DNA of 64,000 nt from a bacterium (lineage in GTDB: Bacteria; UBA8248), in NCBI GenBank assembly GCA_963692865.2, contig OY843592.1:1920001-1984000 (forward strand), given 5' to 3'. The notes beneath the pieces were generated by a model. It did no database searches. It was not told where the DNA came from and worked only from the letters and a program-made list of their open reading frames with translations. Each line of letters starts with the position of its first letter. Positions within the stretch are counted from its first letter, which is position 1. Positions 37,183-51,991 of this stretch are shown here, one piece after another. Both the position numbers and the translations under genes were made by a program.

Positions 37183-37538
37183 GGCTTGATTCGGGCTGTT
37201 GAAAAAGTCCTCATGAATGAGGGTTTGACGCATCCGATGAAAGAGCAAGAAACACTCCCCCCTTGAGGGTCGGGCTTCCCGAGGGGAAAGCCCAACGGTG
37301 AAGCCGAGCGTTTTTTGCGAAGGCTAAACCGGTGGGGGGAGATTTACTCTGTGGCATGTCCCCCCACCAACTCGCCTGCGGGCTTCGCCCTTGCCTCATC
37401 GTCGGCCTTCCCGAGGAGGAAAGATGGGGTAATCGGGTTGGTCTGCGAACTACCGCGTGTGGCGGATGTTCCTCTGCCTTATGATTCGAGGCGAGGCCGG
37501 GATGGTCCGGTCTCTACGCGCCCGCAGGAGGAGCAGTC

Positions 37539-38579
37539 ATGAACTACTTTGCAGGACTCGACGTGTCGTTGGAGTGGACGAGTGTGTGCGTGGTGGACGC
37601 GGAGGGCGGGATCGTCCGGGAGGCGAAGGTCGCGAGCGAACCCGCGGCCCTCGTGGCGTTCTTCACCGGACTGGCCTTCGGCGTAACGCGCATCTGCCTG
37701 GAGGCGGGGCCGCTGTCACAGTGGCTCCATGACGGTCTGGCCGAGGCCGGGTTCCCGGTGGTTTGCGCCGAGACGCGGCAACTGAAGGCGGTGCTCTCGG
37801 CGACGGTGAACAAGAGCGACCGCGACGACGCGCGCGGCATCGCCCAGTTGGTTCGCGCGAACCTGATTCGCCCGGTGCACGTGAAGACGGTGTCGAGCCA
37901 GGAAAAACGCATGCTCCTCGCCAACCGCAGGTTCATGCTGAAGCAGTTGTGCGACGCCGAGGCCCACATCCGGGGCACGCTGCGCAACTTCGGGCTGAAG
38001 ATGGGCAAGGTCACCCGTCGCGGTTTGGAGGCGCGTGTAGGGTGTCTGGTCGCGGAGCGCCCGGAGTTGGCGCGCCTGGTGGCGCCGATGCTGCGGGCTC
38101 GCTCTGCGCTGCTGGCGGAATACGTCCGGCTGCACAGGATGATGCTGGAGGCGGCGCGAGCCGATCCGGTCTGCCGGCGCCTGATGACGGTTCCCGGCGT
38201 GGGTCCGGTGACGGCGCTCACCTTCCGGGCGAGCGTCGACGTGCCATCGCGTTTTGCGCGCTCGCGCTCGGTGGGCGCGCACTTCGGGCTTGTGCCTCGC
38301 AAATGGCAATCCGGAGAGGTCGACCGCACGGGAAGCATCTCCAAATGCGGCGACGCGATGATGCGCGCGGCGCTCTACGAAGCCGCCAACGTCTTGCTCG
38401 GGCGCACGACGCGGTGGTCATGGCTGAAAGCCTGGGCGATGGGTGTGGCGAAGCGTCGCGGCAAGTCGCGCGCGAAGGTTGCGCTCGCCCGCCGGCTCGG
38501 CGTCATCATGCACCGCATGTGGATGGATGGCAGTGAGTTCCGCTGGAAGCGCGACGGCGCGGATGCTTCGGCTGCCTGA
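37539..38579 (+). CDS. IS110-family DEDD recombinase/transposase
   Basis: GLDVS, LEAG and KSDRDDA (DEDD), VPGVGP, GLVP..QSG serine motif, VALARRL; RBS AGGAGG. Confidence 0.97.
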   Translation: MNYFAGLDVSLEWTSVCVVDAEGGIVREAKVASEPAALVAFFTGLAFGVTRICLEAGPLSQWLHDGLAEAGFPVVCAETRQLKAVLSATVNKSDRDDARGIAQLVRANLIRPVHVKTVSSQEKRMLLANRRFMLKQLCDAEAHIRGTLRNFGLKMGKVTRRGLEARVGCLVAERPELARLVAPMLRARSALLAEYVRLHRMMLEAARADPVCRRLMTVPGVGPVTALTFRASVDVPSRFARSRSVGAHFGLVPRKWQSGEVDRTGSISKCGDAMMRAALYEAANVLLGRTTRWSWLKAWAMGVAKRRGKSRAKVALARRLGVIMHRMWMDGSEFRWKRDGADASAA

Positions 38580-38877
38580 GGTCGAGACACTGAAGAAGGA
38601 GGACCACAGACAAACCCTGTAGCTTCCGCCTCGGCGGGGGATGCTCCCGTGGGGACGAGGGACGAAGTGAGTACGCTGTCGGCCTAGCCCCGCTGCGTCG
38701 GTGACGATGCGAGGGCGCAGGAAAGATTGTTCCACTTCGTTCTCCGATCCCATCCTGTTGACGGCCCCCGGCTCGGGAGTCGATCACGAAGAGAAGCGAG
38801 ACCCCCATGGAGCGTCATCTGCAGCCAAAGGCGGAACAGGTCTGACAGAACCAGGGGAGAGGAACTTGACTTGCCCT
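38580..38877 (+). ncRNA. Predicted bridge/seek RNA of the IS1111-type element (ends approximate)
   Basis: Two stem-internal loop-hairpin modules (38662-38740, 38741-38801) whose loop strands match the target and the donor junction. Confidence 0.8.
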
Positions 38878-38993
38878 ACCCGATTAGAGAAGACCGACCC
38901 TCAAAGGGGGAGTGGTTCCATACTGCGTGTTAATCGGTATTGCTCGCGAGGAGGGAGTGAACCTCAAGACCATCGAGGTCGAACGCGGGCGGT

Positions 38994-39079
38994 GTAGGGG
39001 CCGCATATCATGCGGCCCGCCGCCGGAGGGGCGAAAAGGCCGGGCCGCATGATATGTCGGACATATATGTCTGGCCTAC
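38994..39079. repeat. GTAG-type REP doublet (REPIN-like)
   Basis: GTAGGGGCCGCATATCATGCGGCCC ... GGGCCGCATGATATG...CCTAC; related copies at 51444-51516 and 51819-51889, partial copy at 32211-32287. Confidence 0.8.
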
Positions 39080-39161
39080 AAAACCGTATTCCCTGCATGA
39101 CGACCGTGGGGGCGCTTCACGAAGGCCCCCACGGGAACATCCCTTTGAGAGATCAAAGTGC

Positions 39162-39380
39162 CCGTCATTCCGGCGAAAGCCGGAATCCATTTTCGCCTTT
39201 GTCTTTGGCCCTTCGCTTAGACGTCCTCGTTCCCGGCCGGGGAAGATACGGACACCGCCATATGTATCCACCTTATCCGTTTCGGACTCGGGCGCGGCGC
39301 CCCCTCCCGCGAGTCGGAATCAAATGCAAAAACGAAGGTAAAAATCATAAAATGGATTCCGGCTTTCGCCGGAATGACGG
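39162..39380. repeat. CGTC-type REP doublet
   Basis: CCGTCATTCCGGCGAAAGCCGGAATCCATTTT and its perfect reverse complement about 155 bp away. Confidence 0.85.
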
Positions 39381-39592
39381 TGGTTGTCCCGCATTGAGGG
39401 GGTTTTTCAACAACCCCGAGGAGGGAGCGTTCGCTGCCCTTGGCAGGGCTTTTTCAACAGCCCCGAGAGGGCGGCCCGCTCCATTCGCGGTTGACACCTT
39501 GCGCATAAAATCCTTATAAGTTTGGTTTCCTCACCCGGCGTTGCGGGTGGAAAATCGAAAACATATTGAATATCAATCAGTTGGGGTGCCCG

Positions 39593-51234: not shown

Positions 51235-51991
51235 GGGGTTGTTGAAAAAGCCCCGTCGACATCGCCTTTACCCCTCTGACAAGGGGGGACGGGGGGGTTG
51301 CAGTGACAACTCCGAGGGGGTGTTGAAAAAGTCCTGATTTCTAGATTTATCGTATATAACCGACCGACGAGAGAGGAAAACCACTCCCCCCTTGAGGGGG
51401 TAGTTGAAAAACCTATCCCTCTCGCATCAACCACGTTTTACCCGTAGGGGTCGCATATCATGCGACCCGGCCTTTTCGCCTCTCCGGCGGCGGGCCGCAT
51501 GATATGCGGCCCCTACACCGCCCGTGTTCGACCTCGATGGTCTTGAAATTCACTCCCTCCTCGCGAGCAATACCGATTAACACGCAGTATGGAACCACTC
51601 CCCCCTTGAGGGTCGGTCTTTCCGCCTCGGGAAGACCGACGGCAAGACGAGGACGAAGCCCGAAGTCGCGCCGGTGGGGGGAGTTTTTTATTTTAGAATC
51701 GTTCCCCCCACCGAATCGGCCTTCGCACAAACCGCTCGGCCTCTTCGTCGGGCTTTCCCCTCGGGGAGCCCGACCCTCAAAGGGGCTGTTGAAAAACCCG
51801 GAGAGAGACAGTTTGTTTGTAGGGGCCGCATATCATGCGGCCCGCCTTGTGGAGGCGAAAATCAGGGCCGCATGATATGCGGCCCCTACAATGCCATCGC
51901 GTTTTGCGTAGCAGGACAGACACGGAGACCTGTCCCTACGGGATCATCACGTCGCCGACCGAGGGGATACATGGCCTTTTTCAACAATCCC
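51235..51991. mobile_element. TIR-bounded composite cassette E
   Basis: Left-type TIRs at 51235, 51316, 51397 and 51782; right TIR ending 51991; flanking direct repeat CTATTT (51229-51234 / 51992-51997). Confidence 0.75.

Follow-up and report, generated by a model that had tools for sequence, protein, structure and literature searches.

An IS1111-group insertion sequence in the hairpin of a small dispersed repeat, with a predicted guide RNA that matches its target

The insertion sequence, its host repeat and its copies

A 64,000-nucleotide stretch of a bacterial genome of the UBA8248 lineage (GenBank assembly GCA_963692865.2, contig OY843592.1, positions 1,920,001 to 1,984,000; the window, in whose coordinates positions are given) contains a 1469-bp insertion sequence (IS) at 37424-38892. 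The IS splits the right-end hairpin of a ~190-bp repeat that resembles a miniature inverted-repeat transposable element (MITE). It carries a single transposase gene followed by a non-coding region, and in that region a guide RNA is predicted whose two short blocks match the interrupted target. The features of the IS, its host repeat and a related uninterrupted repeat in the same window are collected in Table 1.

Table 1. Features of the IS, its host repeat and their surroundings in the window (a slash marks an insertion point)
Feature	Position	Strand	Basis
Left part of the interrupted MITE-like repeat	37253-37423	+	Family comparison
IS, 1469 bp when a single shared AG core is counted at the right end	37424-38892	+	Junctions, six copies
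Left sub-terminal inverted repeat TAATCGGGTTGG, with the 6-nt extension ATGGGG (37424-37429) before it	37430-37441	+	Sequence
Transposase gene, 346 aa, DEDD/RuvC-like N-terminal and PF02371 C-terminal domain	37539-38579	+	Open reading frame, profile matches
Predicted seekRNA/bridge-RNA region, inside the 313-nt 3' non-coding region	38640-38830	+	Consensus fold, 7 elements
Predicted 'T' guide block, 5' side of the first internal loop	38676-38685	+	Reverse complement of target, alignment
Predicted 'B' guide block AGGAAAG, 3' side of the same first loop	38719-38725	+	Target identity, alignment
Candidate donor-side guide CCCATC, 5' side of the second loop	38749-38754	+	Reverse complement of core G and IS left end (G+ATGGG)
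Candidate donor-side guide AGAGAAG, 3' side of the second loop	38790-38796	+	Same sequence as the final 7 nt at the right end of the IS
Right sub-terminal inverted repeat CCTACCCGATTA, with the extension GAGAAG (38887-38892) after it	38875-38886	+	Sequence
Right remainder of the repeat: ACCGACCCTCAAAGGGGGAGTG, hairpin 3' arm and terminal module	38893-38914	+	Junction reading
81-bp spacer and palindromic REP-like element, outside the IS target	38915-39056	+	Accompany the repeat in 5 genomic copies
Uninterrupted paralogous repeat of another interior subfamily	51596-51785	-	Sequence comparison
Near-cognate empty site CGGAAAG/ACCGAC, equivalent insertion point between 51618 and 51617	51612-51624	-	11/13 guide-read positions

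The left junction of the window copy reads ...GTCGGCCTTCCCGAGGAGGAAAG/ATGGGGTAATCGGG and the right junction ...ACCCGATTAGAGAAG/ACCGACCCTCAAAGGGGGAGTG. The IS starts with ATGGGGTAATCGGG at 37424 and stops with CCCGATTAGAGAAG at 38892, and the interrupted target is ...GTCGGCCTTCCCGAGGAGGAAAG/ACCGACCCTCAAAGGGGGAGTG. A sequence-only reading made earlier had proposed that excision of the block 37425-38893 restores the hairpin sequence, which is borne out; its limits describe the same insertion as 37424-38892, because an A follows both junctions in the window copy. The bases AG are common to both junctions of every copy (AAG in this genome, only AG across related genomes). The insertion adds no bases, and beyond the shared AG no duplication is seen in the copies of this genome or in related genomes. 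The shared AG behaves as expected of a core dinucleotide.

The whole genome (labelled G000; 4.15 Mb in 8 contigs, 61% G+C; C1 is a contig label) holds six copies of the IS, which are 100% identical in sequence and length and have outer flanks that are all different. Four of the six (the window copy, C1:1780176, C1:833910 and C1:11683) occupy the same hairpin position in the same orientation and read ...GAGGAGGAAAG, the insertion point, G or A, and CCGACCCTCAAGGGGGGAGTG, with unrelated DNA outside the repeat. The earlier reading, that the IS is aimed into one arm of a dispersed repeat's terminal hairpin, was therefore correct for most copies. The corollary that all copies should lie in this repeat stood for these four, but not for the other two: C1:3895393 retains the repeat as a left half-site only (GAGGAGGGAAG) and has an unrelated right flank (CGCCCCTACGGG...), while C1:1823985 lies in AT-rich, non-repeat DNA (...CGAAAGGGAAG/GTCGATAC...). 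For C1:1823985, the right flank was absent from all seven of the relatives' loci examined, the nearest ~100 nt being not conserved. In another genome, a 96%-identical IS (L008) occupies the same position of the repeat hairpin. Further, four public runs of one study contain the locus as assembled contigs that break at every repeat, and the IS contig is ~4-8 times as deep as the single-copy contigs beside it, in keeping with several IS copies. Joints across 37423/38893 or 51617/51618 were not found among 15 of 57 joints, and the contig data are silent on empty and occupied alleles.

The host repeat has inverted termini CACTCCCCCCTTGAGGG. Its left part, 37253-37423, comprises the left terminal module CACTCCCCCCTTGAGGG and its hairpin, a G6/C6 hairpin at the centre and, from the right hairpin, the 5' arm and loop, which end in ...GAGGAGGAAAG. 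The 15-mer CTCCCCCCTTGAGGG, with at most two substitutions allowed, occurs 191 times in one orientation and 173 times in the other across the whole genome, amounting to 364 terminal modules; the distance between ends is 140-199 bp in 61 of 114 end pairs. By its sequence, the repeat would qualify as a MITE, being small, apparently without coding capacity, present in many copies and bounded by terminal inverted repeats. No direct repeat that could be a target-site duplication flanks the listed copies. A larger element with a 485-aa open reading frame was considered as the source of a parent transposase and rejected, since its ends differ, being of the TTTTTCAACA type. This element is present in two 99.6%-identical copies of ~1.6 kb (C1:1499136-1500838 and C1:1724298-1725900), and its end type, CTGTTGAAAAA / TTTTTCAACAG, is scattered through intergenic regions, including window positions 37190-37205. 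Judging by its N-terminal sequence, the element may be IS1182/IS5-like.

The transposase reading frame is intact and is the sole long one of the element. Its product matches PF01548 with 49 bits (cut-off 29), PF02371 with 76 bits (cut-off 21.3) and the NCBIfam model NF033542, 'IS110 family RNA-guided transposase', with 237 bits against a cut-off of 140 bits. More than 8000 database proteins match it at E <= 1e-20; the closest named one (87% identity) is annotated only as an 'IS110 family transposase' of a Nitrospinae/Nitrospinota bacterium, whereas identity to plasmid elements annotated as IS5075/IS4321-family is ~25-26%. The transposases of ISCro4 and IS621, for which structures have been solved, are related by sequence at E ~1e-14 over the C-terminal half (PDB 8wt6, IS621: E = 3e-14 over that half).

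The IS110 family has been shown experimentally to be RNA-guided (PMC11187229, PMC11208160), and these papers describe the hallmarks of its IS1111 group. The transposase has 330-350 aa and a C-terminal GL-P----S(t)G motif (PMC11187229), with which GLVPRKWQSG of the present protein agrees. Sub-terminal inverted repeats are usually of 11-13 bp and perfect or nearly so (PMC11187229, PMC11208160); here, the two arms agree at 11 of 12 positions, and in the relative L020 the same G>T change is found in both. Outside the repeats, the group has asymmetric extensions: 7 (or 6) bp at the left end against 3 bp at the right one (PMC11187229). In the present element they total 12 nt, split as 6+6 if the core is assigned to the right end or 9+3 if AAG is assigned to the left end, an ambiguity that arises because two or three bases are common to both junctions. 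A long non-coding region follows the transposase gene in the group (PMC11187229, PMC11208160), and here 313 nt lie after the gene (38580-38892) versus 115 nt before it (37424-37538). The identification as IS1111-type made in the sequence-only reading held on every hallmark that could be tested, with only the split of the terminal extensions ambiguous; by every testable sequence feature, the element is an IS1111-group member of the RNA-guided IS110 family.

The predicted guide RNA and its targets

The consensus fold of seven related elements over the predicted RNA region has 60 pairs, three of them with compensatory changes. Conserved stems close an internal loop, across which the two guide blocks face each other. 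On one side, GTCGGCCT (38678-38685) is the reverse complement of the core AG plus the right flank GCCGAC. On the other, AGGAAAG repeats the final 7 nt of the left flank, core AG included, and is hence complementary to the bottom strand. At the DNA level, the blocks overlap on AG, with the complement of the top strand placed 5' to that of the bottom strand. The seekRNAs of the IS1111 group are described as having the same order and likewise an overlap in the target: the segment that pairs with the top strand is 5' to the one that pairs with the bottom strand (PMC11187229). A second loop bears CCCATC and AGAGAAG, which match the IS left end and the IS right end, respectively, and are placed 5' and 3' as the target guides are, so that we infer that this loop reads the IS ends. 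The candidate CCCATC is in the same register as the right-flank guide of the related elements L011 and L012. A promoter scan found no sigma-70-like site for the predicted RNA. The RNA may be made and bound by the transposase, and a circular intermediate may be formed.

Relatives of the IS were sought in 41 genomes including G000. Matches were obtained in 10 of the 22 other genomes of the same genus and in none of the 18 outside it, and full-length relatives with 85-96% DNA identity occur in five other same-genus genomes (Table 2). In an alignment of the 3' regions of eight related elements (A1; 89% mean column identity), variable columns within 38640-38830 are concentrated in the guide blocks: 13 of 17 guide columns vary versus 43 of 174 others, for which the one-sided Fisher p of 3.4e-5 (seven sequences, L019 being dropped as a duplicate lineage) overstates the evidence because the sequences are kin. 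Further, the guide blocks fit best the element's own insertion site in six of seven guide variants, while cross-combinations mostly give 3-6 matches. In its right flank, L019 (G013:C2:559198) adjoins a tandem array of AGCCGAG heptamers, each unit of which resembles the right half-site of L019's guide.

Table 2. Insertion sites of the related elements and pairing of each element's guide blocks with its own site
Element	DNA identity	Insertion site	Left block	Right block
Window		Canonical site	7/7	8/10
L008	96%	Same repeat hairpin	7/7	7 + 1 wobble
L009	92%	CACGGAAG/ATCGGCTTGC	7/7	7/10
L011 / L025	92%	GACGAGAG/AGCCGACAGG	6 + 1 wobble (L011)	10/10 (L011)
L019	92%	ATATAAGAG/AGCCGAGAG...		
L012	90%	GATGCGAG/GGCAGGAAGTCG	7/7	10/10
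L020	85%	CACGAAAG/GCTGGATTCG	6/7	9/10
L010 (G005:C144:660-2122)	92%	AGAAGAAG/CGGAAATCC	2 + 2 of 7	4/10

Related elements of the genus thus aim at five other sites, none of them in the repeat. The specificity for the repeat therefore looks like one recent reprogramming rather than a long three-layer partnership. The description of the locus as three nested layers of parasitism, proposed in the sequence-only reading, is fair as regards the nesting, for which there is precedent.

Within the genome, the two guides together define the 13-nt site AGGAAAG/GCCGAC. Three perfect sites exist and all are occupied, being those of the three occupied copies with G at +1; no perfect 13-mer is left empty anywhere in the genome, where base composition predicts 0.18. 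With A at +1, the window copy presents one mismatch to the guide. Empty one-mismatch sites number 11 (6.8 expected), three of them in repeat ends. The most frequent near-matches, ~40 left-end repeat hairpins with GGGAAAG/CCCGAC, are two-mismatch sites, none of which is occupied. The suggestion that the repeats spread safe landing sites for the IS applies only to a small minority, the hairpin variant carried by about a dozen of the ~364 repeat ends. The copy at C1:1823985 shows three differences from the 13-mer, two of them potential G.T pairs (flanks read by eye). Its left guide matches at 6 of 7 positions and its right octamer has 6 Watson-Crick and 2 G.T pairs (7 Watson-Crick and 2 G.T over the 10-column block). 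That this copy fits the guides despite lying in unrelated DNA argues for RNA-guided recognition of sequence and not for recognition of the repeat itself.

An empty target for the IS had also been proposed within the window. An uninterrupted homologous site is indeed present on the minus strand at 51606-51640, but it is not identical, agreeing with the restored 35-mer at 33 positions. The 13-nt site in it (51612-51624) differs at two guide-read positions, with C for A at -7 and A at +1 where the guide expects G. The occupied and the empty window loci stay similar for ~140 bp beyond the repeat on the right, and their resemblance is not due to chance. In the subfamily of the empty window repeat, none of the four listed copies is occupied. 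The genome is saturated in that perfect sites are all filled, whereas near-cognate sites with changes at -7 or +1 are mostly empty; this offers a natural read-out of the guide positions that matter.

Target choice and rival explanations

Together, these observations make it highly likely that an autonomous IS1111-group IS inserted into the right-end hairpin of the repeat, its target chosen by its own guide RNA. The event would have been a simple, orientation-specific insertion into the hairpin of the MITE-like repeat with no duplication beyond the shared core. The DEDD transposase would act together with an RNA made from the non-coding region 3' of its gene, and one internal loop of this RNA would bear two short guides. 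The 5' block would pair with the top strand of the core and right flank, and the 3' block with the bottom strand of the left flank and core. The guides would overlap on AG, where strand exchange would join the circularised IS to the target. The 13-nt site is found in this genome almost solely in one rare variant of the repeat hairpin, with perfect sites filled and near-cognate ones, such as 51612-51624, left empty.

Several points weigh against this explanation. The guides of L010 fail on their own site; this copy may have gone off target or been rearranged, or else the rule may be incomplete. The right-flank guide of L011 and L012 (A1 columns 103-112) is one base out of register, forming 10 contiguous pairs from the core G and leaving the core A unpaired. 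Eleven one-mismatch sites are empty while the window copy occupies one, so match count alone does not predict occupancy. The right flank of C1:3895393 is unrelated to the target, and comparison with relatives gave no explanation, the ~370 nt adjoining the IS being either repeats or unique sequence in that comparison. As for the RNA, the single-sequence fold of the 3' region is no better than that of shuffled sequences (z = -1.15), and an Rfam scan of 37200-39100 at E <= 1 gave no family match for the RNA region. Finally, the donor-side guides are putative because they are invariant in alignment A1, and in L020 they mismatch that element's own ends.

Could the IS instead have been carried by the repeat? 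The sequence-only reading had suggested that the repeats may carry the IS as cargo, which would mean that repeat and IS were moved as a unit by the repeat's own transposase and that several of the occupied copies arose in this way. The window copy, C1:1780176 and C1:11683 do share a 100% identical ~150-bp repeat interior beside the IS, and no empty member of that interior subfamily is found among 94 end-like matches. However, gene conversion spreading from the identical IS copies explains the identical interiors equally well, and the terminal ~25 bp of the three differ. The arm of the left hairpin reads TCGGG, TTGGG or TCTGG, one copy is without the CACTCC terminus, and the right side has A or G at +1 and either AAAGGGGG or AAGGGGGG. 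Such end differences would be unexpected if 1.66-kb units had been copied recently. Further, the identical IS is found in a second repeat subfamily as well as in non-repeat DNA, which indicates that the IS moves alone, and no target-site duplication or parent transposase of the repeat has been identified. The cargo proposal found no positive evidence, and composite mobilisation is regarded as improbable. One repeat subfamily carries the perfect 13-nt site and has all three of its copies occupied, which could suggest that the 1.66-kb composite is copied by the repeat's own machinery, a proposition to which we would give little credence. If true, composite copying would be a second, guide-independent route of spread for an RNA-guided IS. 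The IS lineage itself has switched both guide halves at least five times within the genus (85-96% identical elements), so that the genus would be a natural series for asking how guide and flanks, which are both required for excision, change in concert.

A transposase that reads hairpin shape in the manner of repetitive extragenic palindromic (REP)-associated or IS200/IS605-type enzymes would account for the usual target being a hairpin arm without any guide. The matches in the 3' region, which are short at 7 and 8 nt, would then be coincidental. Against this, guide blocks change together with the target in six of seven lineages, five of the targets lying outside the host repeat. In addition, hundreds of hairpins of the same shape and other sequence are unoccupied, one copy lies in AT-rich DNA that is no hairpin and to which the guides match, and the IS110 family is experimentally RNA-guided (PMC11187229, PMC11208160). 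Targeting by protein alone is accordingly very improbable. Hardly credible at all is segmental duplication, in which the IS and its flanks would be copies of a larger duplicated segment and not independent transpositions. The two window loci share ~140 bp beyond the repeat (the spacer and REP-like element, present in 5 copies), but the DNA flanking the six IS copies beyond the repeat is unrelated on either side, and the spacer accompanies empty repeats too, four of its five copies being without the IS.

Known systems, neighbouring repeats and traces of past events

An IS of the same group with another mobile element's terminal inverted repeat as its target has a parallel in IS4321/IS5075, which are reportedly directed to terminal inverted repeats in large resistance transposons on plasmids. 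The present case of nested parasitism is similar, although its host is a small non-coding chromosomal repeat. A close counterpart is ISPa11 of the IS1111 group in Pseudomonas aeruginosa, which inserts in REP sequences and for which a seekRNA was demonstrated (Siddiquee et al. 2024, PMC11187229). ISPa11 shares with the present element the DEDD transposase, the sub-terminal repeats, the non-coding region after the gene, the guide order, a folded dispersed-repeat target and the lack of duplication. The present target differs in being a rare hairpin variant in the terminal module of a ~190-bp MITE-like repeat and not a REP, and the present RNA is a predicted one. Similarly, ISPpu9 and ISPpu10 of Pseudomonas putida KT2440 insert in REPs (Tobes & Pareja 2006, PMC1525189), and several identical copies in one dispersed palindromic repeat are common to those elements and the present one. 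ISPpu9 is reported to form several modular circles (Pares-Guillen et al. 2025, PMC12288879). The question of an extra module, raised there, also arises here, but a module such as the ssr9 described for ISPpu9 is not seen in the six identical copies. ISKpn4 and ISPst6, also of the IS1111 group, target one end of integron attC hairpins (PMC11187229). They are alike in aiming at one fixed position within another mobile system's recombination site, which can potentially fold, and unlike in the target and the host element. With IS621 of the IS110 group (Durrant et al. 2024, PMC11208160), the element shares a homologous recombinase, two loops (predicted here) and guide halves that overlap on the core dinucleotide. 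IS621, in contrast, has its RNA ahead of the gene and its guide halves in the opposite order, and it lacks long sub-terminal repeats (PMC11208160).

The pair ISEc11/ISXne4 has transposases that are 72% identical (PMC11187229). Compared with that pair as presented there, the six closely related same-genus elements with six guide pairs constitute a tighter reprogramming series. Excision of ISEc11 requires target-derived flanks (PMC11187229), and for this reason the two copies with guide-mismatched flanks in the present genome are probably stranded, by analogy with that element. Overall, the locus adds, from an uncultured lineage of the environment, a natural and well-resolved instance of a target chosen by RNA guidance. 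It is a clean but ordinary case of a mechanism described in 2024, and the known mechanism is unchanged by it.

Repeats of other kinds surround the insertion. The 81-bp spacer (38915-38995) has five copies in the genome that are 96-100% identical and that link the repeat to the REP-like element, so that a larger composite unit that includes the repeat exists as well. The REP-like palindrome, GTAGGGGCCGCATATCATGCGGCCC ... GGGCCGCATGATATG, has ~220-300 copies genome-wide, including those at window positions 38998-39056 and 51450-51520. An Rfam match to SAM-VI in this palindrome, the only one in the region, was dismissed as chance (22 bits against a gathering score of 57.5). The spacer in which the IS lies (window 37183-39565; loci L028-L038) separates an rpe-like (ribulose-phosphate epimerase-like) gene from an ffh-like gene, names that are a reading of the translations only. 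It is hypervariable across the genus, with at least four repeat families accumulating there. Repeats of the host family without an IS are present in the spacer in four of ten loci examined (L031, L032, L035 and L038). Single repeat copies cannot be claimed as orthologues, since the sequence on their left side is a repeat as well.

Certain repeats elsewhere in the genome bear marks at the insertion point of the IS. Orphan half-repeats at C1:868900-868935 and C1:3113738-3113795 break exactly there, each joined to a copy of the abundant REP-like palindrome, GGGGCCGCATATCATGCGGCCC, and no reciprocal partner was found for either. A reciprocal recombination linking C1:3895393 with C1:868900 and C1:3113738 was dropped, as the sequences do not fit together. 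At C1:3606998 (3606990-3607035), the right hairpin reads GTCGGCCTTCCCGA-TTAGAGAAG-GCCGAC at unchanged length, and the left half-site is replaced exactly by 9-14 nt from the tip of the right end of the IS (CCCGA-TTAGAGAAG). This repeat is probably the scar of an IS that was lost, presumably by deletion between the CCCGA of the flank and the CCCGA of the right inverted repeat.

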